Assembly (NCBI RefSeq): GCF_964213995.1
Contig: NC_135823.1
Coordinates: forward strand, 992,001 to 1,056,000
Direction of reading: 5' to 3'
DNA length: 64,000 nt
Source: Mustelus asterias
Lineage: Eukaryota
A program made the position numbers and the translations under genes. The notes below the pieces were generated by a model, which was given only the letters and a program-made list of their open reading frames with translations, was not told where the DNA came from and did not search any database. Below, in pieces: positions 3,840-54,604 of this stretch (within the stretch, counting starts at the first letter, position 1; the number at the start of each line of letters is the position of its first letter).

Positions 3840-4560
3840 CTTGGCACTGCTGTCTCACAGCGCCAGGGAGCCGGGTTCAATTCCACACTTGGTTGACATT
3901 CTGTGTGGGATTTGCACTTCCTCCCTGTGTCTGCGAGGGTTTCCGCTGAGTGCTCCAGTTTCCTCTCACGGTCAAAATATGTGCATGTTAGGTGGATTGG
4001 CGAAGCTAAATTGCCCCTGATTGCTCAAATATTTGCAGGTCAGATGAATTGGCCATGCTGAATTCAACGTTACTGTCTAAAGATGCGCAGTTTAAGTGGA
4101 TTGGCCATGCTGGACTGCTCCTTCGTGTCCAAAGATGTGCGGGTTGGATGGATTGGCCATGCTAAATTGCACATTAGTATCCCAAAATAGGCAGTTTAGG
4201 TGGATTGACCAGGATGAATTGTCTCTTAGTCTCCGATGATGTGCAATTTAGTTGGCTTGGCCATGCTGAATTGTCCCTTATTGTCCAAAGGTGTGCAGGT
4301 TAAGTGGATTCGCCGAGCTATACTGGCTCTTAATGCTCAAACATTTGTAGGCAAGATGGATTGGCCATGCTGAATTGCTCCTTAGTGCCCACAGATGTGC
4401 AGGTTAAGTGGATAGGCTATTCCGAATTGCCCTTGTTGTCAAAAGTTGTGTCATTTGCCCCTTCGCGTCAGTGGCTACGGGGATAGGAGCTCGCTGGGAT
4501 TGTTGTCAGTGTAGGCAAGATGGGCCGACTGGCCTCCTTCTGCACTGTAAGTATTCTATT
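3840..4560 (+). mobile_element. HE1-type SINE with internal ~45-bp tandem expansion
   Basis: About ten diverged copies of GATGTGCAGGTTAGGTGGATTGGCCATGCTAAATTGCCCCTTAGTGTCCAAA; similar arrays at 27770-28345, 53230-53785 and 57870-58490 (all -). Confidence 0.85.
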
Positions 4561-27434: not shown

Positions 27435-28919
27435 GTAAGTAACTGAGCCATTTCCAAATTCATCATGAAAACTCTCTCTCCATTTCATACTGTGTTAAGC
27501 ACAGTTCAATCGCGTCACTGATTCCAATGGTATACGTCGAAATATTCCATATTTTAAACTTGAGTATTCTATTTCAAATATTTCTGGCACCTGGGCCAGG
27601 ATTTTTTGAACCTAACAGCTGTTTAATAGTTTTCATTTCCTTGTCTAGTTTGAGCTTGATACAAACAACGCACAGAATGGATCAGAATGAGCGACAAACC
27701 GGTAAATTGCATTCAAATGTTCGCAGAGATTCAATATCATTGAACAGACGTTTCAAAGAATACCTACAGTGCAGAAGGAGGCCAGTCGACCCATCGAGAT
27801 TACACCGAAAATAATCCCACCCAGGCACGATCCTGGTAACTCCACACATTTGCCTTTCTCATTCCGCTGACACTACAGGGCAATTTAGCATGGTCAATCC
27901 ACCTAACCTGCACATCTTTGGAGACTAAGGAGCAATTTCGCATGTCAAATCCACCTGCCTACACATCTTTGGAAACTAAGTGGCAGTATAGCATGGGTAA
28001 TCCACCTGACCTGCATATTTGTGGACATGACGGGAAAATTGAGCTTGGCAAATGCCCATGACCTGCACATCTTTGGACACTAAGGGAAAATTTAGCACGA
28101 ACAATCCACCTAATGTACACAGCTTTGGACACGAAGGGACAATTTAACATGGACAATCCACTTACCCTGGATATCTTTGAACAATATGGAGAAATTGAGC
28201 ATGGCCAATCCACCCAAACTGCAAATGGTTGGACCCTGGGATTAAACCGGAGCACTCAGAGAAAACTCACGCAAGCTCTACACTGACAGCGGCCCGAGGC
28301 CGGAATTGAACCCAGCTCTGTGGCTTTGTGAAGCAGCAGTGCTTCGCAATGCTAAAATGGAATAAATTAATTCAGTGATACGTGTACTTCCCGCCATTAA
28401 AAAAATCCTCAATTATTCTATCTGTTGGTCCGAAAATAAAGTATAATTATTGACTAACAATTCTGGCAGCGAAGTACCATATTGGCATTGACGCCATGCG
28501 GTGTAAATATTCCTGGTCCATCCATTGGCGAATTGCAATCCATTGAAATATTGTTTGAGAGTTGATTTATTGAGGGTCCGTTTATGTATTAGGACAATTC
28601 TAGTATATGTGGGAGCCTTCTTTGGATTGACACACTGTGGTGGCAATTAATGTATTGGGGTCATAGTTGCAAGAGGGCATCATCGGTGCACCGTATCTCA
28701 AATTAATTACAGCTTAGCAAGAACAGGATCTGATTTAAATTGGCATTTTCCACTTTGTTACAGAGGCCGCTATCGCCACACATATAGACAGTTAACACAA
28801 GACAGTGCAGTGCAAGTAAGTTATTTGCAAATATTTTAATACTGTTCAAAACATTGCTGGTTTTCGGAATAAGTTGCAAGGTGTCACTTGCTTGGGAGAA
28901 CCCAAACCGTCCCATGCCG

Positions 28920-29218: not shown

Positions 29219-29439
29219 TTAAATTTTCGGTGGATATTTTTTGCTGCTATCAGAGAACAACTCCATCTCTGAAGCATCTAACTGTGACTCAAATCCCACT
29301 CGTCCGCACCCTGGAATCAGAAAATTAACCTCTGCAGCTCTTCCAACTGATTGTCCAGCGATTGAGTTGATGCTCCGGTTGGAATATGTCAGTCGTACTT
29401 TTCTGCGGACTCCCAGCAAATCGTGTTGCAGATTGCCAG

Positions 29440-30136
29440 TGAAGACGGGAATGGGTTAATGAATTCTAATACTCAAATTGTCAAAGTGAACTCTGTGATA
29501 TTTAGAGATTGTGTGAGAAACACTTTTACGTTCGGGTGTTTCCATGCTCATGTATCCAAGAAGAGATAAGAGTAGCAGCTGTGGTATACAAGACTATGTT
29601 TTTCCAGGCTAATCTGTTCAGGAATGTGGCTAACCCAGCCATTTTGTATTCTTTAATATGTACTGCTGTGTTACAGTAGTGCCTACATACAGGACTTCTG
29701 TGATCGTATAAGGATACATTCATATGTAGTCATCATAACCTGTACCGATATACATTATACAAGTACCTCCGAACATATATAAATTGTTGCATGCCAGTTA
29801 ACTTGCTTGTTCGTGACTGTAACCTTGTACATGAGTGAGACATCCCACAGGTGTCCACAGAGGGCAACAACACTCGCGGCCTTGAGACAACCGTGAGGAA
29901 ACCGCCAAGGCAGCAAGGTTCACATGATGGAAGACAAGCCATAGCCTGGGAACCTGAGGGGCCTGGGACACTGCGGACGTGACGTGGGGGAGGGGGGGGT
30001 ATAAATGTATGTTATTATCCTGTATTATTTGAGAGCTCTGAGGCCGTGTTAGGCATCGGATGTCTCCCACAATTATGAAAATAAACCACTGTATTTTGAC
30101 CGACGAATAGACTGAGAGGTATTTTTACCTACAACA
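29440..30136 (+). repeat. 5' LTR of outer ERV
   Basis: TGAAGACGGG...ACAACA; aligns to 45936-46635 with many substitutions and indels. Confidence 0.93.
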
Positions 30137-30138
30137 AT

Positions 30139-30156
30139 TGGTGGCAAAACCCGGGA
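30139..30156 (+). promoter_or_regulatory. Primer-binding site, tRNA-Phe-like
   Basis: TGGTGGCAAAACCCGGGA vs Phe PBS TGGTGCCGAAACCCGGGA (2 mismatches). Confidence 0.75.
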
Positions 30157-30670
30157 GACCCCGGGAACTGTTTGCGGAAATCTGTTCAGGGGTCCGGTGG
30201 AATGGCCTCGACCGGGACACCGGTATAGATTACTGAACTTGTTGAAGTGGGTCAAAATATAAGTGGGTAATCATCTGTGATGAGAGAGTGTCTGAAATGA
30301 TGAAAGACGTCTGAACTGAGCACATATGGACAAGGGGGCAATTGGCTCTGCCACCCTGCCTTAAACAGTCAGTTAAGAGCGGAACTCTCCCACGCTGATG
30401 TTAGGAATTTGAAATGGGTGTCAGGGTTGCCTGAGGTGTGATGTTCAGACGTGAGTGATAGATAGAGACTGTCTGAGTGACCGCCAGATTTGAAGAACAA
30501 GCCTTTATGTGAAAGCCGGCTGAATAAAAGTATTGTGTAAGTGGTGGTACGGAGGCATCTGATCACCCCTGAACGGTATCACTGAACTCGGATAAGAGAA
30601 ACCTAGGAGGGGGAGAGCGGGAAAGGAGATTAGAAGACTCCAAGGTGGAGAGTATAACCTATTCGATGTT

Positions 30671-31400
30671 ATGGCGGGACAAGGACAGTGGGGCCCGGGG
30701 CCCCTGATAAATGAATATTTGGTTAAGGACAAACTCATTAAACAGATGAACAAAGGGGGGGGGGGGGGTGGATTTTAGACCACCCACTTGACCAACAACG
30801 AAAATGTTTGGACAAAGAAAAAAAAGACAGAAGTAAGAAAATTGTAGTTCTCTTCATTCATCAATTGGCCACAAAATCAAAAAGTACCTGTTACGATTGC
30901 AAGAAACCAGGCTACTTCGCCCAGGATTGTAGGGCGCCAAAGGGGGTCGTGAAGTCTGCGAAATCGCAGATAATGAAGTAATGAGGGAATATGCAGGTTG
31001 CCTGATGAAAGTATAAATGTCAAAGAAACAAGCATTAATACAGAGGATGCAAAAGGATGGCTGGGATACGTCCCAGAACTTAGAGCAGCAGAAAACGTGG
31101 ATAGATAAAGAAAAGAGAAACAAGAGAAAGAAGATTGGCGTACTGTTAACCTATCAGTTAGCTGGACTAATTGAGCAAGATAAATAAAAGATTAGAATGT
31201 TAGAATCCAGAATAAGTGAATTGGAGAAACGAAACCAAGTCTTAGAAGAAAAACAATGGGGAGAGGAAACTGCTCCTCTACCTCCTAATGAGTCCACACA
31301 ACAGAGACCAACCACTCCTCCAGAGGAGTGGGAAGCAATGGAACACAACGTAGCGCCCGTAACCCAGAGGGGAACTGGTGTGCGGCCAAAAGCTAATTAA
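30671..31400 (+). pseudogene. gag: Outer ERV rearranged gag remnants
   Basis: Two segments resemble the inner Gag N-terminus; a degenerate knuckle CYDCKKPGYFAQDC lies at 30889-30930. Confidence 0.7.
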
Positions 31401-34259
31401 AAACCCTTCACCCAGTGTAAAACAGAGATTCGGAGGGGAGGTTCAGAGAGTATTAGGGAATGCTCCCACTTACTGGAGCAGAATTACCACAACAAAACAA
31501 TTAACAGGGGGAAGAATGCACACCAAAGAGGGATCAGTGTATGTGATAACGAGGGAACCCCTAATATTTGGGGAAGGTTGAAGTGGGAATGTGAGAGGTA
31601 TGAGAAAGAGATAAAAGATAGAGCACAACAAGAAAGACTGCAAAGGAAAGATGAGACCAAGAGGAAAGGATTTGTATGGCAAGCCAAACAAAGGAAAGAC
31701 AAAGAGGTATCTGGCTTGCCAATGTTGTTCCAAAATACCGATACGGGTGAACAGAAGTGGTGGAATCGACCCAGTGTAGATAATAACCAGAAATCTAAGG
31801 TAGCCGTCATTGCCCCGATAGATATAACAGACAGCAGCGCCGGCGCCGCTGCAAAGACAGAAGGGACTCAAATCAGGCTCACTTGGTGAGTTTGAAGCGT
31901 GATAGTAAAGGGTTAAACACCAGCAGGTTGTAAATTTCTCTCTCCCTCTCTCTCTTGACAAAGGAAAAGAGAGAGAGAAAGGTGAAAGTGTGCGATCAAG
32001 AGCCTCATGTGGTGGAATAGGGAATAGCAGATCAAAGTGACTTGTTTGCTCTGAGTGTGAGTTTTCATAAATTACTTTGCCCAGTTGAAATTTTCCGATA
32101 GTGCATCGGACAGAGTTTTGGGGAAAGTGGAAAAAATAGCATTACATTACATCTGAAGATTCGTAAGGAGAGTTAATCATTTACACATACAGTAGATTCG
32201 ATCTTGGATCTGCCTGTGTTGGTTACAAGGATAGAAATAATTAATTATGCACATTTTGAGCATAAACCGGAGAGTCTGTAAGAAAATGTAAATGTCTTAA
32301 TTTAGTAGCGATATTTAAAAGTCATAAAAATGAATGGATTATTTGGATCAGGCTTTTTGTTCAATTTGAAAATGTATTCTTGATAGAACTGAAACTGAAA
32401 ATGGAAATAATTATTCCTGCGTAGTTAAAGTGATGACTAATCACTTGTTTATCTTCATCTGAGTGAACTTACTCCTCCGCTTCTCTGCTGAAACAAGCGG
32501 AGAACTAATCCATCCTGTCCCAGACAGGATGGATCAAGACATAAAGTCAAAATTTAACAGAGAAGGGGGTTACATACGTTTCAATGGGAGTGCATGTGTA
32601 ATGATGGGAATTATTATACTGCCATAATGCATTCTAAGTAAATTGTGTTACATGGATATGCAAAGGAGTGAATCAACCGTGAAACGGAAGCGTATTAAAT
32701 GCCAGACGGGCTAAAAGGGAGTGCCCGCCTACAATGCCATATTGACAAATCAATATAATGAGGAGGGAAATAATTCAGTGGAATAGATGAGATAACAAAA
32801 TGCTGAGGACGGGTTTGGTACAAACTGTTAGAGATTAAATTGATAAGATTTCTTGAATTTACTTCCGTTTTGAATTTAATTACAGTTTGGAAGACAACAG
32901 AATAAAACCCATTGTTAATCAACGTCCTGTGTTCTCAAGCGTTTTACTTTCATCCAAGTTTAAGATGTTAAGTCTAAATAAATGTTGGAAGCTTCCATGT
33001 GTATTTGTGTGTTTAACAAAGTAGTTGCGTGAATGTTTTGTTGTTGTTCGCCTCACTGTTTTAATGTTAAGAAAGGAGTTAGACCTTTGAAGGACCATGT
33101 GCCCTTTCCTTGTCTTGAAGTTGAAATTATACGAGTGTAGTCGAGAAGTTAAAAATAAGTAATTTCCTGAAAAAAATAGGAAAGCAGGAACAAAAGAATG
33201 AGGTGCTCATACTGCAGATGAATCAGTTTAAAGTAGATCAAAGTAGTGAAATGAATCGTCGTTCTGATTACTCCAAGTTACAGCAGAGATGAATCACTTA
33301 AAACCTCAGTTGTTAATACAGATACAGATGTTGTCCTTGAGTAATTTTACGCTGCATTATTTGCTTATCATCGAACACCATGAATTGTTGAAACTTGTGT
33401 TGCCAAACAGTTCTAAATAACATGAAAATAATATGAAATTCAAGGCTTGCATGATGTTCCGATAACATGCAACTGTAACTGGTTCAAATTACATACTGCC
33501 TTTGGGATTGCATATTGTTCAAGGTTTTAGCACATCGCCAGCTAGAAATCAAACCAAAACATTTCGAATCAAGTAACTATCGTTTTTGTTATGTGTATTG
33601 TGCTTGTTATTATTCTGAAAATGCAGGGATTTTGATCTGGAGCTCAGTTTAAAAATGGAAACGGCTTACATTAAGAGGGTTTGGATATACCAGAGAAAAT
33701 CAAATCCTGAAGAGCCTTAACCAATTGTATAATATAAATTGTGTTTTGATAAAAACATAATTTTGTTGGAGAAAAGGCGATTTATTCTAACCATTCTTCG
33801 CCATAATTTGTAATGACTTGCACAATTAACATTAACATGACAGGAAGTGAAACCGGATTACTGAAGGGAGAGAGAGAAAAAAAGAGTTGGAGACTGGCTT
33901 TGCAGCATTCAACTGAACACAACAGATAGCTCATCCGGTTATCTGTGTCTTTAAAGAGCTGTGTCTGGCAGCATAAACAATTGACATCTGTGACCACGAA
34001 AGACTGTTGTTTACCTTATGAGACAATCTGTCTATCGAAGGATCCTCTCTGCTTAAACATCGCACTGTCAAATGTGGGAAAACAAATGATCAAATTAGAA
34101 ATAATGTAAGAATACATCATATAAAGATCGGAGCTGAATGGCCTGTGATTTTAATGAGGAAAGTGATGTATTTTGATGGGATTAATGAATTGATGTCCAA
34201 CTGCAGCCGTTGCAGAGTGTTATTTGGCTTCCACTAAGCTTTCTATGGAAGGGGGACAT

Positions 34260-34475
34260 GTGGTTAAATGTATAATGCACTGGCTTGTGTGGACAAAGGT
34301 ATTGCCCACCATACTAATGAGATTAAGGGTTACCACAAATCGAACAACCGGATTAACCCCTTATGAGCTAATGACAGGACAGGTGATGCAATTACCAGAA
34401 AGCATCATAACAGATGGGACTGATGAACGTCCACTGAAAGATAAAATCAGGAGATATGTTTTGGAACTAAGCACC
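34260..34475 (+). pseudogene. pol: Outer ERV integrase C-terminal remnant (continues 44054-44300)
   Basis: WTKVLPTILMRLRVTTNRTTGLTPYELMTG...KDKIRRYVLELST resumes after the TSD as QLKGMRKLV...GPSEVIISGATCACIDIRGKG. Confidence 0.85.
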
Positions 34476-35082
34476 TGTAGGCGGGCATAAATTTTGTGGG
34501 TATTAGGATTAGAATATTTCTTAAACTATAACTCGATAAATGAAGCAAAACAGGACAGCATTCAGCCAGAAAGGTGTGAGTAAGGCAAGCAGGCATCTTT
34601 TAAACACAGAAACCAGGTTGACAAAGACTCAGGAACTCGCATCAATATGCTATTCAGAAGATATCTTGAGACCTGGAAAACTTCCTGACATCCCATCAAA
34701 CACCCATTGTCCAAAGGAATTCAGAGACATAAAGCAATTATCACACTCTTAAACCAAACTTTACATATTAAAACTCTAGACCAGAAAACCCATTAACGGG
34801 ATAACTATAAAAGAAAACCATTTACACATCAAACTCCACACCCACAAACCTATTGAAACAGGATGATTATATCAGGAAACCACTCACAAACCATTTACAT
34901 ATCAAAACAGATCGTTACTATAACTATACTCCGTTTTGGCAGGCAGGCAGAGTACTTTGCGGGACTGTCTTGTCTGTGTCCTGATTGTACCTCCGTCGAC
35001 GCAAAAAACTATAATAAACTGTGCTGTTATCGATCTTGGCTCTGGGTGCGAGTGGTGTGGTATCTGTTCACTCGCGCTAACA
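34476..35082 (+). repeat. 5' LTR of inner ERV
   Basis: Starts TGTAGGCG, ends CTAACA; AATAAA near 35013; near-identical to 43443-44049. Confidence 0.97.
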
Positions 35083-35084
35083 AT

Positions 35085-35102
35085 TGGGGGCTCGTCCGGG
35101 AT
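35085..35102 (+). promoter_or_regulatory. Primer-binding site, tRNA-Pro
   Basis: TGGGGGCTCGTCCGGGAT, the canonical Pro PBS, 2 nt after the LTR. Confidence 0.95.
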
Positions 35103-35992
35103 AGTGACCGCCGCTGGAACATCGCCTCTCAAACACTGGGTGAGTATTTTTACTCATTTAAAGTCCGCGGGAATTCCCAGTGCCAGCGGTGTTCCACGGC
35201 TGCCGCGATCTGAACTTGTGAACAGAGCCCGATCGAGAGCTGCACAGCGGGGTAGGTTCTTCTTTGGGCGGGTGAGCGGGGTCGCGAATTGTAATTGATT
35301 GTGTACTGTTGCATTCCGTGTATCCCTGACAGCGGACCCGACCAGACATTAGCTGACCCAAAAGGTACCTAAGGAAGACAAGGGTTAAGTGGCCGGGAGG
35401 CCGGGAGGACGTCCAGGGTTAGGGCCAATGAACGCGGACTCACGAAGTTCGGTTTAAGTCCGGGCGCTGCAAGTCGGGTAGGACCTCTGCAGGCGCGAAA
35501 GTCTGGGCCACTGGAAACAGATCCGCGAGGAGTCTGCTACATGTCCGGGCGCTACTAAGTCTGGAGCCTCTGTGAGTGCTTCGGGCACTACAAGCAGGAG
35601 ACCTCTGGTAGCGCGAAAGAACGGCTACACGCCGGGGGAACTCCTACCTGCGGTCAATCCCACGCTTGTCCGCACCCAGGTCAGGGTGATTCCCGGGGAG
35701 ATAGGGAAACGGCGAGCCTCTGTGGATTGATTTAGCGGTAGGATTTGGTCAGGAAAGAGTGGCCCCCGGCCCCTGTAGTCGTGGTCAGGCCCCCCCCCCC
35801 CCCCCCCCCTGTCTCTGTGAGCGGTGATCTCCCCGTTACATGCAGGACGGGCTCTGCGTGTTACTGCTGAAGGTTTAAAGGTACTGACAGTGGAAACACC
35901 AAACCAGGAACCCCAGGGATACCTACACAAGTATCTGTGGGAAGCACCAAACCAGGATTAGTACACCACTGATCTTAGCTAAGAGATTCGAC

Positions 35993-37408
35993 ATGGATAG
36001 CATTGAGACCATTTTTGAATGGGGGCCGGAAGGGTCCCTCACCCGCTATCTAGCAGATAAAAACAAGAACCTAATTAAAAGCATGATTAAAACAGGGTGG
36101 AAACCCCAAGACCCCCTTGAGAGCCAACGGGAATGGTGGGCAACGGAAAAGAGGAACAAGGATGATAAGGCTTGGATCCTCATACTGAAGGCACACCTCA
36201 CCCTAGCAGGGCGAGTCCATAAATACGTTCAGGATAAACAAGAAAAGGCTGAACAGAAAAAGCATGCTGCTGTGATGGCTATTAACCCCGTGTTGCCGGC
36301 ACTGACCGACTTCTCCCGTGAAGCCCCATACGAGGAATGTCCCGATTGGGAGTGCTTAATAGACGAGACAAGTCCTCGGTGCCCAACAGGGGGGAGTCCC
36401 CCGGTAACCACCGATCCCCCAAACGCCAAAGCAACACCTCTTAAGATCGAATGTATCCCAGGGGGACAAGGGAGAGACGGGCGAGGAAGGCAGGCCCAAA
36501 TTAAAATGACTTATGTGTCACTCTCGCCAGGGGACACTATGAAATTACTAGAAAAGCTCCCAACCCTGCAGCCCAGGCACAGTAACGCAATTTTTTGGCA
36601 AAAGATGAAAGAGATGCAACTGTGCCACAACTTACACAACCGAGATATAGCAGGGTTAGTAAGAGCCAAGATGCCCGAGAATCACTGGGCTCGGCTCCGG
36701 GCAGAACACCAGAATGGGACTTGGTGTGCAGACCTAGACGGGAGCCGCCGGGAGCAGGAACAGGCTCTGACAGGCTTTAAAAACGATATCATCCTGACCA
36801 TGGGGGAGGTCCCCGTGAGTTGGAGTGTAATAGTAGGAGTAACGCAGAAAAAGGAGGAAGGGGCTCAGGAATACGGGCGACGAAAATTCGATGCCTTTGT
36901 AGCCCACGGAGGAATGCCAGATGCAGAGAGACAGAACCCGGCATTCCTCCAGTTATATAGGGATGGGCTGAGCCCAGCACACCAAGCTATCCTAAAGACA
37001 GGATTGGTAAACTTTAACACCTTCGATGAATTAGAAAACTGGGCTGTCACTGTAGACAACCAGCAAAGGAAAACACAGGGCGCCAGAGCAGGGATATCAG
37101 CGGTAGGAACTGAAGGAGGAAATTGCGACAGGTGCGGGGAATTAGGCCATTTCAAAAGGGAATGCCGAGCTATAACCCCGCACCCTCCTAATACATGTAA
37201 TAAGTGCGGCAGAATCGGACACACCGACTCTACCTGCAAAGACAGAAGGATCCCAAGGAGAAAGGGAGCGCCCCCGAAGAGACTGGAGAAAACCCCGGCA
37301 AGCGCCCCAGATATAAGGGAGAATGAGGTGGTTTCGGACCCAGCGCACCTCAGCCACCAGCAGCTGCTGGACATTATACAAACCTTGGCGGCACAAAAAT
37401 CTGCATGA
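35993..37408 (+). CDS. gag: ERV Gag (471 aa, intact, two CCHC zinc knuckles)
   Basis: Open ORF after the leader; CDRCGELGHFKREC and CNKCGRIGHTDSTC; ends in TGA in frame with pol. Confidence 0.93.
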   Translation: MDSIETIFEWGPEGSLTRYLADKNKNLIKSMIKTGWKPQDPLESQREWWATEKRNKDDKAWILILKAHLTLAGRVHKYVQDKQEKAEQKKHAAVMAINPVLPALTDFSREAPYEECPDWECLIDETSPRCPTGGSPPVTTDPPNAKATPLKIECIPGGQGRDGRGRQAQIKMTYVSLSPGDTMKLLEKLPTLQPRHSNAIFWQKMKEMQLCHNLHNRDIAGLVRAKMPENHWARLRAEHQNGTWCADLDGSRREQEQALTGFKNDIILTMGEVPVSWSVIVGVTQKKEEGAQEYGRRKFDAFVAHGGMPDAERQNPAFLQLYRDGLSPAHQAILKTGLVNFNTFDELENWAVTVDNQQRKTQGARAGISAVGTEGGNCDRCGELGHFKRECRAITPHPPNTCNKCGRIGHTDSTCKDRRIPRRKGAPPKRLEKTPASAPDIRENEVVSDPAHLSHQQLLDIIQTLAAQKSA

Positions 37409-39736
37409 GTGGCATCGGCCCCCGCCCCGGGAACGGACCCCCGTATCTGGGTGAATGCATCGTTAGGGGGCCGGCGATGCAAAATATTAATAGATACGGG
37501 GGCTTCGATATCCCTCACCAACATGGCACTACCCACCACCCACCGTTCCATAGTAGTAGTAGGAATAGGGGGGGATAGGACTATAGCATATCAGAGCGAA
37601 GCAGTGTTACTTGAGGTAGAGGGGATCATTCTCCCCGTACACTTCTGGGTGGGCCCAAATGAAGAAGGGACAATTTTGGGAATAGACCTCCTGGGAGAGT
37701 TAGGAGCAGTGGTGGACGCTTTCAATAAGCGCCTGCTGTGGACGGCAAGGAAAGAACACAAGAGCGGGATCCAAGGATACTGGGTCCCTAATAAGAACGT
37801 AGCAGCCATAGGCATGGGGGCTCCGGCTCCGACGGCCCGAGACTGGAAGAAGGAGGGACTAGTGGGACTCTTATGTCAAGCACTACCCCGGGTCTGGGCT
37901 ACAGGCAAGCAAGACTGCGGTCTCGTCACAATCCTTCCTTTACAAATACAAGGACCAGCCCATGCCCCTCATAAACAATATCCCATAAAACCCGAGGCGT
38001 TACAGGCAACCGAAACAATCGTCCAGGCTTTGGTTAAACGGGGCATCCTGAGACCCACCGTGTCCCACACAAATTCCCCGATGTGGCCCGTCCGTAAGCC
38101 AGACGGGAACTACCGACTAACCATCGACTATACCGCCCTGAATAAGGTCACCCCAAAGAAACACCCTATCGTTGCGAGCCCGGCCACTATATTTAACGGA
38201 CTGCGACCTGAATATTGTATCTTCTCCGTGCTAGACATAGCAAACGGATTCTGGTCAATTCCACTCCACCCAGACTCCCAGGAGAAGTTTGCCTTCACCT
38301 GTGGAGGTAGACAGTACACCTGGACCCGTCTCCCCCAGGGATTCCACAATAGCCCCAACATATTCCACCGGGTTATGAGCAAAGCCCTCGAAAATTGTAA
38401 CTTATCCCCCTATGAGAGCGCTTTTCTCCAATATGTGGATGACATCTTGATCGCCTCCACTAACCCGACGGGGCATTTGGGAGCCCTGTCAGTAATCCTG
38501 CGGGGCTTACAAACAGCAGGATTTAAGGTTAACCCAACCAAAGCACAACTCGCAAAACCAGAGGTCCGATATCTGGGGCATTACATAAGTCAGGGAAAGA
38601 AAACCCTTCCCACGGACCGAAAAACAGAAATTGCCAACATGACCCGTCCGAACACAGTTAGGGGGGTGCGTAGGGTAATGGGACTCTTTAATTACTGTCG
38701 GAATTTCATCGATCAGTTTGCATCCATAGCAGAACCTATCCAGCGATTGGTAAAAGGGGGGAGGCCGGGGGCAGAAATCATTGAATGGGGACCCGAACAA
38801 GAAACAGCATACTCCCACCTGAAATCAGAATTATTAGCGGCCCCAGCCTTATGCCTGCCCAACAGAGCGAAACCGTTCCATCTTTTTTATAATGCGGAGG
38901 ACGGATTCTATAGCTCCGTTGTGACTCAAGAAAGTGGGGGCACCATGAGACCTGTAGCATATTATTCGGTGCGGCAGTCCCCGATAGCCAAAGGACTACA
39001 CAAATGTGTGGCAGCCCTGGACTGTGCCGCATGGGCAGTCAGGGTGTGCGAACCCATTACTATGTTAGGACAGATCATCCTGCACACAAAACATACAATA
39101 GTAGAATTATTAAACACAGGTCGACTCCGAACTGTTTCAGATGCTCGAAGGGCAACTTGGGAGGCAGTGCTCCTTCCTCAGGACCAATCTATTAAAATCG
39201 TACGAGATACCGGAAGAAACCCAGCAGAGGGGTTCCTTCCAGACGGCAGTCCACATCACTGTCCGATTAACCCAGACATGGATACAGAGGATGGGATTAG
39301 TGACCAGCCACTGGAGAACCCCGATATAATACTATACGTAGACGGGTCCCGAAGGCAGGTGGAGGGACAGTACCGCACAGGATGGGCAGTGGTAGATCAG
39401 GAAGGAACACTAATAGCAAAGGGCACCATGGGGGGGGAGACCTCTGCTCAAGTGGCCGAGCTTATAGCATTAACAAAGGCCCTTAGCGCAGGAAGGGACA
39501 AAAGGGTAAACATATACACGGACAGTCAATATGCGTTCGGGGTGGTTCACGACTATATGATAGCATGGAATAGGCGCGGATTCATTACCGCAGCGGGGGG
39601 ACACATAAAACATGAAAATATAATTCGAGACCTGGCCACAGCATCCAGACTACCCTCAGAAGCAGCCGTAATTAAAATAAAAGCCCATCAAAAGACAAGG
39701 ACTGTAGAGCAGCAGGGGAAGCCCTCCCACAGATAG
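37409..39736 (+). CDS. pol: ERV Pro-RT-RNaseH (C-terminal end of RNase H deleted and frameshifted)
   Basis: Protease ILIDTGAS, RT LPQG and YVDD, tether, RNase H LYVDGS / SAQVAEL / YTDSQY. The expected GNxxAD motif is missing near 39720, where the frame shifts. Confidence 0.95.
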   Translation: MASAPAPGTDPRIWVNASLGGRRCKILIDTGASISLTNMALPTTHRSIVVVGIGGDRTIAYQSEAVLLEVEGIILPVHFWVGPNEEGTILGIDLLGELGAVVDAFNKRLLWTARKEHKSGIQGYWVPNKNVAAIGMGAPAPTARDWKKEGLVGLLCQALPRVWATGKQDCGLVTILPLQIQGPAHAPHKQYPIKPEALQATETIVQALVKRGILRPTVSHTNSPMWPVRKPDGNYRLTIDYTALNKVTPKKHPIVASPATIFNGLRPEYCIFSVLDIANGFWSIPLHPDSQEKFAFTCGGRQYTWTRLPQGFHNSPNIFHRVMSKALENCNLSPYESAFLQYVDDILIASTNPTGHLGALSVILRGLQTAGFKVNPTKAQLAKPEVRYLGHYISQGKKTLPTDRKTEIANMTRPNTVRGVRRVMGLFNYCRNFIDQFASIAEPIQRLVKGGRPGAEIIEWGPEQETAYSHLKSELLAAPALCLPNRAKPFHLFYNAEDGFYSSVVTQESGGTMRPVAYYSVRQSPIAKGLHKCVAALDCAAWAVRVCEPITMLGQIILHTKHTIVELLNTGRLRTVSDARRATWEAVLLPQDQSIKIVRDTGRNPAEGFLPDGSPHHCPINPDMDTEDGISDQPLENPDIILYVDGSRRQVEGQYRTGWAVVDQEGTLIAKGTMGGETSAQVAELIALTKALSAGRDKRVNIYTDSQYAFGVVHDYMIAWNRRGFITAAGGHIKHENIIRDLATASRLPSEAAVIKIKAHQKTRTVEQQGKPSHR

Positions 39737-39756
39737 CTGCCATCACCTCTTCCCCC

Positions 39757-40983
39757 ATGGAAGAGATGGATGTTCATAAACTACAGGGTAGCGCTGACCC
39801 AGACGAGGTGGCGCGGTGGAAACAGACCGGGGCGTCCTTAGACGAAGATGGTATATGGAGGAAAGGACATCAAGTAGTCGCCCCCTCATTCATACAGGCG
39901 GAACTACTTCGACTCCACCACGAACCAAACCACTCCGGACGGGATGGGACCCTAGCTCGTTTATCAGGAGATTGGTGGTGGCCAGGGATGGGGCGGGATG
40001 TAGCTAAGCACTGCCAAAGATGCATCATATGCGCACAGCATAACCCTGGCCAGCCCCTGAAGGTTAAACTAGCAAACCAACCCAGGCCAAAGGGACCTTG
40101 GGAAAACCTCCAAATTGACTTAATCGGCCCTCTACCCACCAGTCGTGGGAAGAAGTACTGCCTGGTCCTCATTGACCAGTTCACCCGATGGGTAGAAGCC
40201 TTCCCAACCCGGGATTGGGGGGCAACCACTGTAGCCCACATCTTAGCATATGAGATAATACCCAGATGGGGAGTCCCGTTACAACTGGACTCCGACCAGG
40301 GGACACACTTCACAGGCAAGGTAATGAAACACGCATGTAAAACCTTAGGGATCCGACAGCGGTTCCATATACCATACCACCCCCAGAGTGCTGGAATGGT
40401 AGAGAGAATGAATCGCACCCTCAAGAACACGATAGCAAAAACTATCGCAGAAACAGGTCAGGGGTGGGTAGATGTCCTTCCCTGTATCCTGATGCGCCTA
40501 CGGGCCACCCCAGGTCGAACCATAGGGCTCACCCCGTTCGAACTAATGACCGGGAGAGCAATGCGACTCCCCGAAAACATCGCCGTGGGAGGGGAAGAAA
40601 TGACACCCCTCCGGGACAAGCTCAAACGATATGTGCAACACTTAGATTCACAACTCCGAGACCTGCACCACACAGCCAGGGACCAGCAAGCCATTAGAGA
40701 CCAGGCTAAAAAGGAAAATGTCAGTCATACCCCCACCCTCCCTCGAGTAGGGGATAGGGTTTTGATTCGGATTGCCCCAGACCGACCCGGGTTTGCACCG
40801 AAATGGATGGGACCCCACGAGGTTATCCTTACCAGCGATACATGTGCGTGTGTCGATGTGAAAGGAAAAGGCCGATGGAAACATTGGTCGCAATTAAAAT
40901 CCTATCACCACGGGGAAAGAGGACAGAGCAGACTGACTGAAAGGACAGAGGATGCTCCGTCCACTCCACGTATTGGCCCTTAA
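39757..40983 (+). CDS. pol: ERV integrase portion of pol
   Basis: HHCC (HEPNH...CIIC), DDE core QIDLIG / DSDQGTHF / PQSAGMVERMN, C-terminal PKWMGP. Confidence 0.95.
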   Translation: MEEMDVHKLQGSADPDEVARWKQTGASLDEDGIWRKGHQVVAPSFIQAELLRLHHEPNHSGRDGTLARLSGDWWWPGMGRDVAKHCQRCIICAQHNPGQPLKVKLANQPRPKGPWENLQIDLIGPLPTSRGKKYCLVLIDQFTRWVEAFPTRDWGATTVAHILAYEIIPRWGVPLQLDSDQGTHFTGKVMKHACKTLGIRQRFHIPYHPQSAGMVERMNRTLKNTIAKTIAETGQGWVDVLPCILMRLRATPGRTIGLTPFELMTGRAMRLPENIAVGGEEMTPLRDKLKRYVQHLDSQLRDLHHTARDQQAIRDQAKKENVSHTPTLPRVGDRVLIRIAPDRPGFAPKWMGPHEVILTSDTCACVDVKGKGRWKHWSQLKSYHHGERGQSRLTERTEDAPSTPRIGP

Positions 40984-41124
40984 CCATCTTTGTCCTTACA
41001 GCGGAAATCGAAATAACAACCTTTATTTTCCAACACTAAAGGAACTATATGCCAACCGAGGCATGAATGTATATATGTAGATAGAAATAAGAATAAGATA
41101 AGTAAGACAAGTTCATCACCTAAT

Positions 41125-43293
41125 ATGAACCTAACGACTGGCGGCCACCAGGTTTTATATATCCTCCCCCAACCCCTCTCCAGAACCATGTGGACCACTT
41201 GGAGGATGATCCTCGCGGCGACCTTCCTGACGAGTGTGGCACCTGAAGAACACCCCATCTACCCGCGATTCCACGGGATAGCCTTCAACACATCCGAGGC
41301 ACTATGTGTGCCAGCTGGACCGGACCCTATGAACAGTAGAACTTATCTTAACGCATGGCTACAAGTTTACCCGGGTATCAACGAGATCTGCTTCACTTGC
41401 ACTTTAGAAGGACTCCGAACATGCATTCAACAGCGGGACCTCCAGAACAGAGACCAGTGCGTTTTTTGGGACTCTCTGCGCCCTCCCCGACAACCCACAA
41501 GAGGCCCGACCACAGGACACTTTGAATTCAAACATGGACATTTGCGGCTATTACGGACTTGTTGAGGCTCCCGCAGTCTCATTGTATGTATGTTTTGCAC
41601 CGCTTCCAACGCGGGCCCCCACGACCACAAGGCCCGAAATCTTACCCTGTCCCTTGCAAAGCAGGGGACCGGAGGGAGGACTGGTGTTGTGGAACGAGGG
41701 GGAAATTGTGTACGACAACGTAAAACATGAGGTGGTACCTGTCCTGATCGACATTTCAGGAATCCAGGTCCCCAGGCATTGCTCAGAACAGGTACAGAAC
41801 TTGTATCAGATGTTAGAGAGAGAGACCATAAAACGGGCCATTGACGCAATGGGGGCCACACACTACAGGGGAAACATAAACACCAACACATACCGAAGCA
41901 AACGGGGTATTATCAATGATATGCTCACAGGGCTGAATACAGGAGACACAATGATTAACTCCATTGACATCCAGGGCCTCAACAGTAAAATTGAACAGCT
42001 GAAAGGGGTAATGAAAAACATATTACAGCGGTCATTAGACCAGCAGGCGGAACACGCATTCTTAGGGGAAGCGGGCGCCCATATCCAACTAGATGGGATT
42101 GCAGTGTTAGAAGCACATGCCCGAACTATCAATCGCCTCATAGACAGGGAAAGGGAAGACACTGCCCGGGTACAACAGGGACAGTTATGCCATGCATATG
42201 GTCAGTGGATGGTGGCACAAATACGACACAATTTGGACCAGGTACACAGGGGGGAAGTGCCCGATTGGATCGACAGCGCCCAACTAGCGCAACTCGCAGA
42301 TCAGAAGGGGGTGCTGGATGACCGGACCCTGAAGGGGATGACACGAGTATATCCAGTAATCCCCGACTGCGAGGTTAGTGAGGGCACCGGGATAGGAATG
42401 GTTCTGCTAATTCCAACGGTCACACAGGACGCTGGACCATTCCCCATCTTCCGAATTGAAAATATTGGTGTCGTTAGGGGCAATGCTTCCTCCGCTACCA
42501 CATAACCGAAAACATGGCCATCTCCAAACATGGCATAATGTCCAGTGTTTCTCTCGCAGGGTGCAAGCAGAGGGGAGAGGTCACCATCTGTCCTCACCCA
42601 CTGAGACAAGGAGAGACAGCAGAATGTGGGTTTAACCGAACACAGGACTGCACCTTAGAGATTATACCCGTAGACCCACATTTCGCCCGGGCAGGATACG
42701 GGGGGCGGGGTAGATACTGTGTAGCCACCACACGTACATCATTCACATATAACGGATTAACATGCCCAATCCCCGACCCTAACTTCTGTTTTACCCCTCG
42801 CAAGCCAGTCACTATAGGTCAAGCTCACATCACCAATATTCGAAATAGGCAGACCATAGCCTTTAATGCCACAGACCCCCTAAAAGACAACCTAAGAGAC
42901 TACCAAGAACCCGAGCAAGCCCCCATCCCACACCTGACCGAAGTCCTAAGGGAGCTCCGACTTAAAGTAGGACACTCCGTCCGATTATACCACCGGTTAC
43001 AGTCACACATCAAAACCTTGGAACAAGATACCGAGACGGCGTTACGAAGTCAAACATGGGTACAGAAGGTGTGGGACTGGGGTCTAAATGTAAACATCCA
43101 CCCCTGGGTCCGAATTACATCGCACACACTGGTGGTCATCCAACTCATCTTAGCCCTTTCCTGGGGATTGGCTACATGTTATACCTACCGCCAGCGGAAG
43201 AGAATGAAAGCACATAAGAACTTAGTTAGAACAATTGGTATGATGGGGCAGGTAGCCAAGCGGGATGATTACTCCCGCCTACACATGATTTGA
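41125..43293 (+). pseudogene. env: ERV env, paramyxovirus-F-like architecture, split by two 1-nt indels
   Basis: Signal-like MILAATFLTSVA, furin site RSKR (41894-41905), heptad region, Cys-rich domain, C-terminal TM and YSRL tail. The three frames join if one T is removed from the T-run at about 41462-41467 and one C is added at about 42490. Splice acceptor at 41001, donor at 35140. Confidence 0.85.
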
Positions 43294-43442
43294 CAAACTC
43301 CGGGACTCCCCTAAACTGTACGACTGCAGCGTACGGAGGCAGGAAGCACCGGACACAAAATATAATAAAGGGGAGAAAGATCGGTTAGAAAAGTGAAAAG
43401 GAAATAAACAACAAAAATTCACTTTTGACCGACAGGGGGGAC

Positions 43443-44049
43443 TGTAGGCGGGCATAAATTTTGTGGGTATTAGGATTAGAATATTTCTTAAACTATAACT
43501 CGATAAATGAAGCAAAACAGGACAGCATTCAGCCAGAAAGGTGTGAGTAAGGCAAGCAGGCATCTTTTAAACACAGAAACCAGGTTGACAAAGACTCAGG
43601 AACTCGCATCAATATGCTATTCAGAAGATATCTTGAGACCTGGAAAACTTCCTGACATCCCATCAAACACCCATTGTCCAAAGGAATTCAGAGACATAAA
43701 GCAATTATCACACTCTTAAACCAAACTTTACATATTAAAACTCTAGACCAGAAAACCCATTAACGGGATAACTATAAAAGAAAACCATTTACACATCAAA
43801 CTCCACACCCACAAACCTATTGAAACAGGATGATTATATCAGGAAACCACTCACAAACCATTTACATATCAAAACAGATCGTTACTATAACTATACTCCG
43901 TTTTGGCAGGCAGGCAGAGTACTTTGCGGGACTGTCTTGTCTGTGTCCTGATTGTACCTCCGTCGACGTAAAAAACTATAATAAACTGTGCTGTTATCGA
44001 TCTTGGCTCTGGGTGCGAGTGGTGTGGTATCTGTTCACTCGCGCTAACA
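43443..44049 (+). repeat. 3' LTR of inner ERV (preceded by PPT 43431-43442)
   Basis: Copy of 34476-35082; purine tract GACAGGGGGGAC immediately upstream. Confidence 0.97.
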
Positions 44050-44456
44050 CACCCAACTAAAAGGGATGCGCAAATTGGTAAAAGACAATCAGGAAATAAC
44101 AGACAGAGAGAGAGAGAGAGCTTGAAATGCTCCCTGACGTCCTCGTGAAAACACTACCTCACAAATCAGGGTTTGTACTAAAATGCGATGGGCCGTCTGA
44201 AGTTATAATTAGTGGAGCTACCTGCGCCTGCATAGACATCAGAGGGAAAGGTATATGGCAATATTAAGCATTAAACTCAGTTGAAAGAATATGCTGAAAC
44301 TAATTGGGAAAATATGTGATATACTCCAAATGCAGGTGTGTACAGAAAACGACTGACCTCCAAGCAAGCTCAGCGGGTTGACATGAAGTTGCGCATGGAC
44401 AGTATAGCCTTTGGACCTTTGTATAACAGTCGCGCGGGTTATTAGTAAGTGATAAG

Positions 44457-45882
44457 ATGCTTTTCCTGCTGCTTCTCACGACCCTGTCCCTGTTAGCCAT
44501 TGCGGGAAAGTGTCGATGGAATTATGAGAATTTAGGCATGGGACACAATGACACAATGACATAATGATGACTCTGTCTATTGTATGAATACCTTTGCGTA
44601 TATGTCTTATCTGTATGTATCACAATCGAATCTGAGCAAGTGCTCGGTCTGTTCACCCATTCCCACGCACGGAGGAAAAGGAGGAATTCCTTTATTCCCT
44701 ATCCCTTTATCAGCTCCGGAAGTAATTAAATGTGTTTTAAAACAGACTGGAACCCAGAAAGGGACAAGGCAACTGGCATTCAAAACCCCACTGAGTACCA
44801 CTATGCAGGGTACGTTTAACACGAGCAACGCTTTTGTTGTTTTAAAACCAGGGGGCGGAGGGTGTACTTTATCGACCTTCAAGAAACATTACCAGCCCAG
44901 CAATGACAGATCAGGTTCCCCACCCTAATTCGTTGAGAAGAATAAACAAAGGGGATTTATCTGCCTGATGAGAAATGGAACCATACGTGTTGGCCGTAGG
45001 TACTATATACAGCAGATTGTTATCACTAAAGCCGCTTGTGGCATTGTACGGGTCACAATTCAGTGACCCAAAGCCACCGTCCCGGTCAGCCTCTCCTCCG
45101 CTTATGTAAGCGAGATGATTGCATATAACGGTACCTATTTTATCTGTGGAAACAATGCCTATCCATGGCTTCCGTGGAATTTGGCAGGATCGTGTTATTT
45201 GGCATATGTGGTGCCTTATATTCACCATTACACTGACTTACCAAACCACCCCAAAATACTCCTGTTTCGGGCTAAGCGAGCCATGAGTGAGACAGAACGG
45301 TCCTTCATGATAGCCTACCCACTTTATCGGACAGCAAAGACAGCACAAGAACTTATACGGCTGGCCTCGACCCGAGAGAGAATTGCAAATGAGACGAAAG
45401 ATGGGTTCGAGGAGGTGAGCACAGCCATCTCTGAAATATCAGCAGAGGTCGTAGCTATTCGGACTGTGGCGTTACAGAACCGATTGGCACTGGATTACGT
45501 GCTGGCCTCCCAAGGAGGAACATGTGCCATAGTTGGCTTGGAATGCTGTACGTATATTCCCGATGCTTCAGAGAATATAACTCGCTTAGCAGATCATATT
45601 AAGCACGTGGCGAGAACAATACAGGATGAGGGGAGCCAGTATCACAATTACAAACCTCCGGGATGGCTGGGGCAATGGTTTGGGTCGTGGGGTGCATACC
45701 TTATGCATGGAGTGATTGTATGAATTGTAATTGTAATTGCTTGCTGTGTTTGTATGGCATTACTGAACATCTGCAGTAAAACGGGAACAGCCCGAACTAT
45801 GCCGGGTGCAAGTGTACAGGCAGAGGGGGCAGACCTCCTGACAAAGGAGCTGGACCCATATGCTGGTAACCTTTTATTCTGA
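44457..45882 (+). pseudogene. env: Outer ERV gamma-type env (frameshifted)
   Basis: Signal MLFLLLLTTLSLLAIAG, SU CxxC (CSVC), furin RAKR, immunosuppressive domain LQNRLALDYVLA, CX6CC (CAIVGLECC), TM. Confidence 0.92.
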
Positions 45883-45935
45883 ATTGGTCATGGGTCCATG
45901 TGCGGACCACCTGGCACCCGACCAAAAGGGGGGAG

Positions 45936-46635
45936 TGAAGACGGGAATGGGTTAATGAATTCTAATGCTCAAAGTGTCAAAGTGAACTCTGTGATATTTA
46001 GAGATTGTGTGAGAAACACTGCAGAACTCATGTTTACATTCAGGTGTTTTCATGCTCGTGTATCCAAGAACAGTTAAGAGTAGCAGCTGTGGTATACAAG
46101 AGTATGTTTTTCCCGGCTAATCTGTTCAGGAATGTGGCTAACACAGTCATTTTGTATTCTTTAATATGTACTGCTGTGTAACAGTAGAGCCTACATACAG
46201 GTATTCTGTGATCGTATAATGATGCATTCACATTTGTTCATCATAACCTGTGCCAATATACATTATACAAGTACCTCCGAACATATATAAATTGTCGTAT
46301 GCCAGTTGACTTGTTTGTTCGCGACTGTAACCTTGTACGTTAGTGAGACGCCCCACAGGTGTCCACAGAGGGCAACAACACGCGTGGCCTTGAGACAAAC
46401 GTGAGGAAAACGCTGAGGCAGCAAGGTTCACACGATGGAAGACAAGCCACAGCCTGGGAACCTGACGGGCCTGGGACACTGCGGACGTGACAGTGGGGTA
46501 TCAATGTCTGTTCTTAACCTGTATTTGCTGAGAACTCTGAGGCCGTGTTAGGCATCGGACGTCTCTCACAATTGTGAAAATAAACCACTGTATTTTGACC
46601 GACGAATAGACTGAGAGGTATTTTTACCTTCAACA
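45936..46635 (+). repeat. 3' LTR of outer ERV
   Basis: Follows PPT 45924-45935; AATAAA near 46579; ends TTCAACA. Confidence 0.93.
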
Positions 46636-52830: not shown

Positions 52831-54604
52831 AATGAAGAAAGGTAGAAACATCAACTGATGTCAAAATAATTTTTACAACCGGCTTCCCTGTCTTCCTCTT
52901 TGTATTGCGACTATTCATCACGAGCTGCGGGCCATCTACGCCCGGCGGCTGTTGATATGTTTTGCAGGAATCTCCTCACATTCACTCTTCATCCCACCCC
53001 ATCAACACATGATTTTATTCCTTTCGCCTTCATTTGTTTATCCAGCTACTGCTTACTTGCGCATCGGCTCATGGGCGAAAGGACTCAGTGTGGGAGCCAC
53101 TTCCGCATTCTCTCCACTCGCTGAGTGAGCAAGTTCCTCATGAAACTCCAGCTGTCGTCATGAGCGACGATTAGCGGTATTTCTCTCCCAACAAGACCCG
53201 ACTCATCATTTCACATTTTGCAATCGGTTTAGAAGCTGGCAGAATCCCTCCGGTGCAGATGGGGCCCATAGGATCTTCGAGCTTGCGCCGAGTGCACCAA
53301 AGAACATTCAACACAGGCCCTGAAACACCCACATGTTTCCCGTGCCAAATCTCCAAATCTTCGCACACGAAGGTGCAATTTACCATGCGCAGTCCACGTA
53401 ACCTGCACATTTGTGAGCTCTAGGGGACACGGTAGCACGGCCAATGCGCCTAAACTACACATATTTGGATCTTTCGACACTAAGGAACAATTTAGCATAT
53501 CTAACCCACCTAACATGTACATCTGTGGACAAAAACGAGCAGCTTAGCACGGCCATTCCCGCTAACTTGCACACTTGTAGACATTCAGGGGAAATTTAGC
53601 ATGGCCAACCGACCTAACCTGCACATCTTTGGACTGTGGGACGAAATCGGAGCACTCTGAGGAAACCCACACAGTCATCGGGAGAACGTGGAATCTCCAC
53701 ACAGACAATCACCCAAGGCCGGAATCGAACCCGTGTCCCTGGCTCTGTGAGGCAGCTGTGATAACCACTCTGCTACCGTGCCATCGCGTTTAGGCATTTA
53801 TTTGCTGCAGGACTGGATCACTGCTGGTTGAATTCCTGTCAAGGTATTTGTAGCTCCTCAACGAGTTTGAACATTTCTTTATCCCCCCTCCCCCGGAGCC
53901 CCCCAATACGCACACACACACACACACACACAAACACACACGCACACGCCAGCTAACTGTTATGCCTTTTGTCCATCAAGCCGCTTTATCAGACATGCGG
54001 AATCATACAGGTGTGTGGCATATATGGAATGCTGGAAAATCAGGTGAAATCGCAGGCCGAACCAGGAATAAACTTTGAGGATGTAATTTCGACAGCATAC
54101 TTATAATTTTACCGACATTTTCTGAGAAATATTTTATATCAGGGAGCAGTCCCGCCATTAGTACCAATGAATACGTCGTTATCAATTTGAATCAAAATTA
54201 ATTGTGTCATTCGAGGACTCAGCAACTGTCAAATAGTCTCAAGGCTGAATGATGTTTAAGTTTAAACTGAGGCCAGAGTCAAGCCATGACACTGTTGAGA
54301 CATTTCCGTCCTGGGAGTGCTTCAAGGTCCAGGCGCAATGCAACTACAACTGGATGACCAAAACTGTACATAATACACCAAGTGCAGCCTCACCAACGAC
54401 TTACACAACTGCAAGTTGAGCCTGAGTTTGGAATATTAATGGGTCAAATTGATCAAACTGCTTAAAAAGACTGAATATAGCGAGGAGCTCGAGTGGACGA
54501 ATATCTATCCTCTCTGTACGGAAGGTGTGACGAGAGAACAAGATGGGAGTGGAGGTTGAACAAAAACAGAAAATATTGGCAAATCTCATCAGATGTAACA
54601 GCAT

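Follow-up and report, generated by a model that had tools for sequence, protein, structure and literature searches.

A high-copy shark retrovirus with a predicted F-type envelope, likely a native feature of the lineage

Introduction

F-type envelope proteins (Env) have been published for lokiretroviruses (PMC7947760) and foamy viruses (PMC11468914), and invertebrate F-type env genes are described in PMC13524379, where vertebrate work is given as 'reported elsewhere'. The lokiretrovirus Env, compared here by description only, is F-like with a signal peptide, an RXKR site, a coiled coil and a transmembrane (TM) helix (PMC7947760), and the foamy Env has an F-like core seen by cryo-EM (PMC11468914). 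For epsilonretroviruses, the available text of PMC9967133 notes only that their Env is without gamma-type hallmarks, and it assumes that walleye dermal sarcoma virus (WDSV) re-acquired its Env, the fold not being known at the time. ERVs of the snakehead retrovirus (SnRV) clade, or clade Huo, include CmiERV lineage I of the elephant shark (PMC12193657, PMC6001957, PMC4422223). No paper in the literature searched, as far as the available texts go, calls the Env of SnRV, WDSV or a shark ERV F-like; that literature also covered PMC12583693, PMC13709493, PMC2717909, 10.1101/2021.11.05.467493, 10.1101/2024.03.17.585361 and 10.1101/2023.10.26.564176, while Calcraft 2024 (Cell), Wang, Chen, Cui 2023 (J Virol) and the supplements of PMC7947760 and PMC11468914 lie outside its scope.

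The locus described here lies in a 64,000-nucleotide stretch of the genome of the shark Mustelus asterias (NC_135823.1, positions 992,001 to 1,056,000), which is called the window and to which all coordinates refer unless another locus is named. A preliminary description, made from the letters of the window, took the element for a recently active chimera that combines a gamma/epsilon-like class I pol with a paramyxovirus-F-like env. We are fairly confident of a different history, in which this is a high-copy shark retrovirus with a reverse transcriptase (RT) outside the gamma and epsilon viruses, near SnRV, and with a predicted F-type Env likely to be native to the lineage.

Results and Discussion

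Provirus structure and copy number

The window holds a complete provirus of the layout LTR-gag-pol-env-LTR at 34476-44049 on the + strand, the strand of all its features given below. The 5' LTR (34476-35082, 607 bp) runs from TG to CA, the 3' LTR (43443-44049) is preceded by a purine tract, and a 4-bp target-site duplication, CACC, is found at 34472-34475 and again at 44050-44053. The LTRs differ at one of 606 compared positions, and the provirus is very recently integrated. The primer-binding site (PBS, 35085-35102) is of the tRNA-Pro type, as in MLV. When compared over 44 virus loci, its 18-mer is identical in 18 of them, including Friend MLV, REV and STLV-2, and is absent from the SnRV, WDSV and foamy loci. 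The same 18-mer occurs 401 times in the shark genome against 0 for its reversed control, a count that covers the young family together with any other Pro-primed ERVs.

The gag gene (35993-37408) encodes two CCHC zinc knuckles and ends in a TGA that is in frame with pol, and read-through of this stop would yield Pol. Protease, RT with the YVDD motif, tether and RNase H are encoded at 37409-39736, and the integrase (IN) part of pol at 39676-40983 in another frame than RT, the window copy being split near 39,710-39,720. Both the YVDD motif and the Pro-type PBS that had been pointed out earlier are present. The env gene (41188-43293) belongs to a family of F-type class I fusogens and has two breaks in the window copy. 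No 3' accessory ORF was seen between env and the 3' LTR, and the provirus contains no separate attachment gene.

A 270-aa piece of Env searched against the genome yielded 1,319 candidates and, among them, 142 scored matches, with 97-100% identity in 139, and the genome holds at least 142 near-identical env copies. Thirty env loci were fetched, and the 22 copies with a full frame have a mean pairwise divergence of 0.28%, in keeping with the recent activity proposed for the element. They carry 28 replacement and 23 silent variants, in a sample biased to full frames; the neutral ratio of replacement to silent changes is near 3:1. Env is 99% identical to an NCBI-annotated Mustelus asterias protein, which agrees with the shark host suggested from the letters.

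The young provirus lies within an older ERV (29438-46635, +), which it entered at the integrase gene; the LTRs of the older ERV (about 29438-30136 and 45934-46635) are 89% identical to each other. This older element has a gamma-type env at 45067-45720 with a TLV_coat match (E 5e-14), LQNRLALD and CX6CC, and a single locus thus contains an F-type and a gamma-type env next to each other. Arrays of 52-nt period, associated with SINE-like repeats, occur elsewhere in the window at 3924-4495, 27860-28234, 53336-53650 and 57874-58297.

The env gene and its product

The window env had been described as broken by indels, and it does run over three frames with two breaks, near 41,460-41,500 and 42,480-42,490. 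Contigs of all four runs compared differ from the window at the pol break and at both env breaks, so the env breaks are either private to this copy or assembly errors. A single 722-codon ATG frame is found in 22 of the 30 fetched sister loci, and by hand count 96 of the 142 scored matches fall within a stop-free frame of 758 codons.

In run X5 (run type unrecorded), one contig connects 35250 with 41183 across GT..AG ends. In this spliced form the donor GTAGGT (35251-35257, exon end 35251) is used with a pyrimidine-rich acceptor (tract and acceptor, 41161-41183) just before the ATG at 41188. The acceptor, at 41183/41184, falls between the two env ATGs and the spliced leader is without any ATG, which puts the most likely start of Env at 41188 (701 aa) and not at 41125. 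The gene is therefore where the preliminary description placed it (41125-43293), with a start that is likely downstream of the one given there. With a start at 41188 the Env N-terminus is likely a signal peptide, followed by a Cys-rich beta domain, an F2-like part, the furin site, an F1-like part, the TM and a short tail.

Env features and predicted structure were worked out on P0001, the natural protein of a sister copy. It has one furin site, RSKR at residues 257-260 (window 41894-41905), followed by 462 residues, and so has the short pre-cleavage part and long post-furin subunit noted before. The Cys run C-x8-C-x11-C-x7-C of the preliminary description is present as C480-x8-C489-x11-C501-x7-C509 (window 42562-42651), within beta-rich F1-like domains and in a region that aligns to the foamy TM. 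P0001 lacks the CX6CC motif and the immunosuppressive domain (ISD), its sole LQNR being in the N-terminal domain without the ..LD, as had also been read from the window. The peptide after the furin site is Gly-rich, with a Kyte-Doolittle value (KD19) of about 0, and is more hydrophobic in relatives. A TM lies near the C-terminal end, with a hydropathy peak at residues 668-687 and a helix in the model, and corresponds approximately to window 43117-43185.

Predicted envelope fold

P0001 was folded as a monomer by AlphaFold2 on a 51-row alignment, giving a model with a mean pLDDT of 69.5, core blocks of about 90 and a pTM of only 0.46. Foldseek against the PDB returned 241 matches at E<=0.001 (best E 2.6e-10), and every row listed is a paramyxo- or pneumovirus F. 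In VIA, Z was 12.7 against hPIV3 F and 11.3 against postfusion Nipah F (rmsd 4.8, 275 residues); overall its Z against F was 11-13 over 275-340 residues at 9-14% identity, with Env residues 182-573/641 aligned to F0 from about residue 26 on. TM-scores are 0.3-0.35 and rmsd is large in most structural-match rows, probably because the monomer model places the long helices differently. BFVD matches included F-type proteins of lispiviruses, baculoviruses and paramyxoviruses and the Env of WEHV1 (E 1.8e-12), WDSV (E 9.4e-11) and feline foamy virus, with no gamma or beta Env among the 50 rows listed. ESM Atlas scores were 0.92 for Baculo_F and 0.89 for Fusion_gly.

These comparisons support an Env that is F-like and not gamma-type, as was first proposed. 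The proposed check by structure came out on the same side, with paramyxo- and pneumovirus F as best matches and no gamma or beta Env among the rows listed. The proposed check against Pfam turned out differently, since the Env sequence itself matches none of Fusion_gly, Baculo_F and TLV_coat. Env pieces and six longer homologues had no match to a fusion-protein family or to TLV_coat, one of 32 further relatives matched Baculo_F (E 0.001), and phmmer with one env piece found nothing in the PDB.

Residues of about 180-640 are predicted to form an F0-like core with DI/DII beta domains, DIII helices and HRB. The likeness to paramyxovirus and pneumovirus F thus lies in the predicted fold of this region and in the short F2-like and long F1-like subunits, but the shark Env differs in its weakly hydrophobic fusion peptide and in an extra N-terminal Cys-rich beta domain. 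Folded alone, this domain reached a pLDDT of 53 and a best Z of 4.5, and it had no match in the ESM Atlas. Ig-like annotations precede the F core in some relatives (P0043, P0020).

If the model holds, Env would be translated from the spliced mRNA with its start at 41188, would trimerise and would be cut by furin at RSKR. The F0-like core would then consist of F2 strands and helix, a Gly-rich, weakly hydrophobic fusion peptide, a long HRA, DI/DII, HRB and the TM, and its refolding into a six-helix bundle would fuse the membranes. The small Cys-rich beta domain before the core would serve for receptor binding, in place of the separate attachment protein that paramyxoviruses have. Judging from the fold and from the retention of env frames, the family may have spread by germ-line reinfection.

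Envelope relatives

Relatives of the shark Env were found in bamboo, horn, saw and cat sharks, in a skate and in four frog genera. The frog proteins are P0040 (Mantella), P0063 (Bombina), P0031 (Pelodytes) and P0219 (Xenopus), and the 16 members of the Mantella cluster suggest another young family.

When the family Env profile was compared with PDB sequences, foamy Env gave the sole significant matches (E 4e-5 to 4e-4). The profile was also scanned, at a cut-off of E<0.01, against the ORFs of 44 fetched retrovirus loci, two of them pol-only. It matched WDSV (E 1.5e-9, positions 39-543 of 554), SnRV (E 9e-8) and 12 of 17 foamy loci; the 23 gamma, SSSV, Xen1-like and delta loci gave no match (L045 is presumably Xen1). 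Alignment of profile A1 by hhalign was collinear over 337 columns with SnRV Env (E 7e-8) and over 339 columns with WDSV Env (E 3e-8), and covered 128 columns of SFV Env (E 2e-5), against 23 columns at a probability of 1.6% for Friend MLV Env. By this homology the SnRV and WDSV Env are likely F-type, and the Env of WEHV1 is a structural match too. The homologous frames are L074:5974-9648 for WDSV and L031:6131-9532 for SnRV. A quick Env tree of 21 rows joins SnRV and WDSV at 83 with long-branch warnings, and leaves the relations of SnRV, WDSV and foamy Env unresolved.

Among described viruses SnRV shares most with the shark family in RT (best exogenous match, at 39% identity) and has gag, a stop and pol in one frame as well; the homologous Env core extends from a CP..P..G motif via the furin site to the Cys cluster. 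SnRV differs in its PBS, in an Env frame of about 1,130 aa against 701 aa and in an Env tail of 136 aa against about 36 aa. The likeness to WDSV and WEHV (Epsilonretrovirus) is in Env, which in WDSV is homologous over almost the whole profile; the WDSV Env is 1,225 aa long, however, and its RT belongs elsewhere, as set out below. Foamy Env shows sequence similarity over the Cys-rich TM region, but foamy viruses differ in pol, Gag and RNase H, and their Env includes a large RBD as well as a leader peptide bearing a second TM. Lokiretroviruses carry their F-like Env behind a dual-RNase-H pol, with an RT that is sister to all retroviruses and an RNase H of the foamy group, and their Env matches PF00523, which the shark Env does not (PMC7947760, as described there).

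Placement of pol

The first impression of a class I pol is explained by the PDB comparison, in which MLV is the best match of RT-RNase H (364 bits against 190 for foamy virus); no SnRV-type RT appeared in that PDB list. Among 41 virus loci, SnRV is the best RT match of the exogenous viruses. Trees of RT and tether were made from 78 rows, from 68 of 119 rows after pruning of near-duplicates and from subsets of 37, 41, 39, 28 and 25 rows, all without lokiretrovirus, ERV-L/ERV-S and alpha/beta/lenti rows. In every tree the window RT falls outside the crown clade of gamma, SSSV and fish epsilon-like viruses (with WDSV/WEHV-like viruses where included). The crown excludes it at 97-100/99, and at 95 under a mixture model. 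The window RT instead lies in a basal grade with SnRV and ERVs of fish, coelacanth, frog, turtle and bird, in which the branching order is open and no tree has a supported clade of window RT and SnRV.

AU tests reject a grouping of the window RT with SSSV-like (p 9.6e-14), WDSV/WEHV-like (p 2.5e-47) and gamma viruses (p 6.9e-6) and do not reject the SnRV group (p 0.16), a group that was named after seeing a tree. Grouping with foamy viruses, which would have spoken against a chimera, was not found; foamy RTs are split from the window RT by a 100/99 branch, and the AU test rejects it weakly (p 0.035). The IN tree also places the window IN outside the gamma/epsilon clade, at 94/93, just under the star threshold. 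The gamma/epsilon-like class I pol of the preliminary description is therefore not upheld. BLAST scores of RNase H and IN are higher with epsilon and gamma viruses than with SnRV, and a lineage close to the base of the crown would be expected to show this. By BLAST, RNase H reaches 83-123 bits with orthoretroviruses and at most 38 with foamy viruses. There is a weak MLVIN_C match (E 0.029).

Upstream DNA was fetched for ten other F-type env loci of the shark genome, and five of them contained RT pieces. All five RTs belong to the basal grade and make up two more families. These loci (L089, L092, L094, L097 and L098) represent two older, degraded shark ERV families with an F-type env and a basal-grade RT. 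The RNase H of one older family is only about 25% identical to that of the window and the other has no RNase H match, a hint of RNase H exchange in these families.

Origin of the envelope

A gamma/epsilon class I retrovirus that recently took its env from a lokiretrovirus, foamy virus or negative-strand virus, as in the preliminary description, would account for the MLV match of RT-RNase H, for the class I-like Pro-type PBS and weak MLVIN_C match, and for epsilon and gamma viruses being the best BLAST matches of RNase H and IN among exogenous viruses. The MLV match, however, comes from a PDB list without an SnRV-type RT, and RT placement with SSSV-like, WDSV/WEHV-like or gamma viruses is rejected by AU tests, with IN outside the crown as well. 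The Env family is old and wide, extending over sharks, a skate and frogs, and stands with a basal-grade pol in three families. Since Env is homologous to that of SnRV and WDSV, an F-like Env on a basal RT needs no recent swap. The recent chimera is largely refuted already, and we regard it as very improbable. Hardly any more room is left for a fish foamy-like ERV or a lokiretrovirus, groups in which an F-like Env is already known, and we think this the least probable origin. Foamy Env is the sole significant PDB sequence match of the Env profile and the AU rejection of a foamy grouping is weak, yet a 100/99 branch separates the foamy RTs from that of the window, and RNase H scores higher with orthoretroviruses than with foamy viruses, whereas lokiretroviruses and foamy viruses share an RNase H group (PMC7947760, in the text available). 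Gag with two CCHC knuckles, gag and pol in one frame, and a short signal-peptide-like Env N-terminus in place of the foamy leader with its second TM also stand against it.

Native F-type Env on a lineage near SnRV is the reading that we prefer, and it raises the question of how far back such an Env goes. F-type Env is likely common to lokiretroviruses, foamy viruses, the SnRV grade and the walleye epsilonretroviruses. With the three shark families added, the simplest history is an F-type Env that was probably ancestral to retroviruses, with gamma-type Env a later replacement near the crown. The WDSV RT is inside the crown, with gamma-Env carriers (SSSV, L045) as neighbours, so at least one env swap took place, in a direction that is open, and WDSV either retained an F-type Env or re-acquired one. 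This swap is also an argument for a history in which F-type Env was not ancestral but was repeatedly recombined among aquatic retroviruses, with the shark family as an old recipient. A class I env has been described in a class III virus (from a title cited in PMC9967133), the text available of PMC9967133 argues that epsilonretrovirus Env is a recent development, and the Env tree unites SnRV with WDSV. Repeated recombination nevertheless requires a larger number of events than a single ancestral F-type Env that was replaced later, and all sampled non-crown lineages with a readable env carry the F-type (lokiretroviruses as given in PMC7947760). We consider it unlikely, though it deserves some weight. 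A wider proposal is made only tentatively: an ancestral F-type fusogen, later Env of the HIV/MLV type, a shark family that is a compact, amplifying carrier of the former, and a domesticated shark gene.

A solitary intact env gene

An intact F-type env lies apart from the young family at L075:1456-3720 (G000:C10:98713360-98715573, +), with a 754-aa ATG frame and a furin site. The locus is the sole close match in the genome, its product sharing 86% identity with a Chiloscyllium punctatum protein and 91% with one of Scyliorhinus torazame. A search of about 10 kb upstream and 8 kb downstream gave no retroviral gag, pol or LTR pair; the only matches there are to the tail of a predicted protein, P0117, and are read as LINE pieces. 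The gene has no cover in four runs, which is uninformative on expression. It is a candidate domesticated shark fusogen.

Significance

F-type envelopes reach the orthoretroviruses and are more than an oddity of foamy viruses and lokiretroviruses. The findings give a fold assignment to the Env of SnRV and of WDSV/WEHV, which reviews leave unclassified in the text available (PMC9967133; 10.1101/2021.11.05.467493), and the four origin scenarios of PMC7947760 become testable, with 'F first, replaced later' favoured. At 701 aa, the shark Env offers structural studies a compact natural model. Screens that look for captured shark env genes, as described in 10.64898/2026.05.06.723177, require ISD and CX6CC, and such screens miss the whole F-type class, including the conserved solitary shark gene. 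If its domestication is true, that gene, which is intact and shows 86-91% identity between two orders, would be an F-type counterpart of syncytins.
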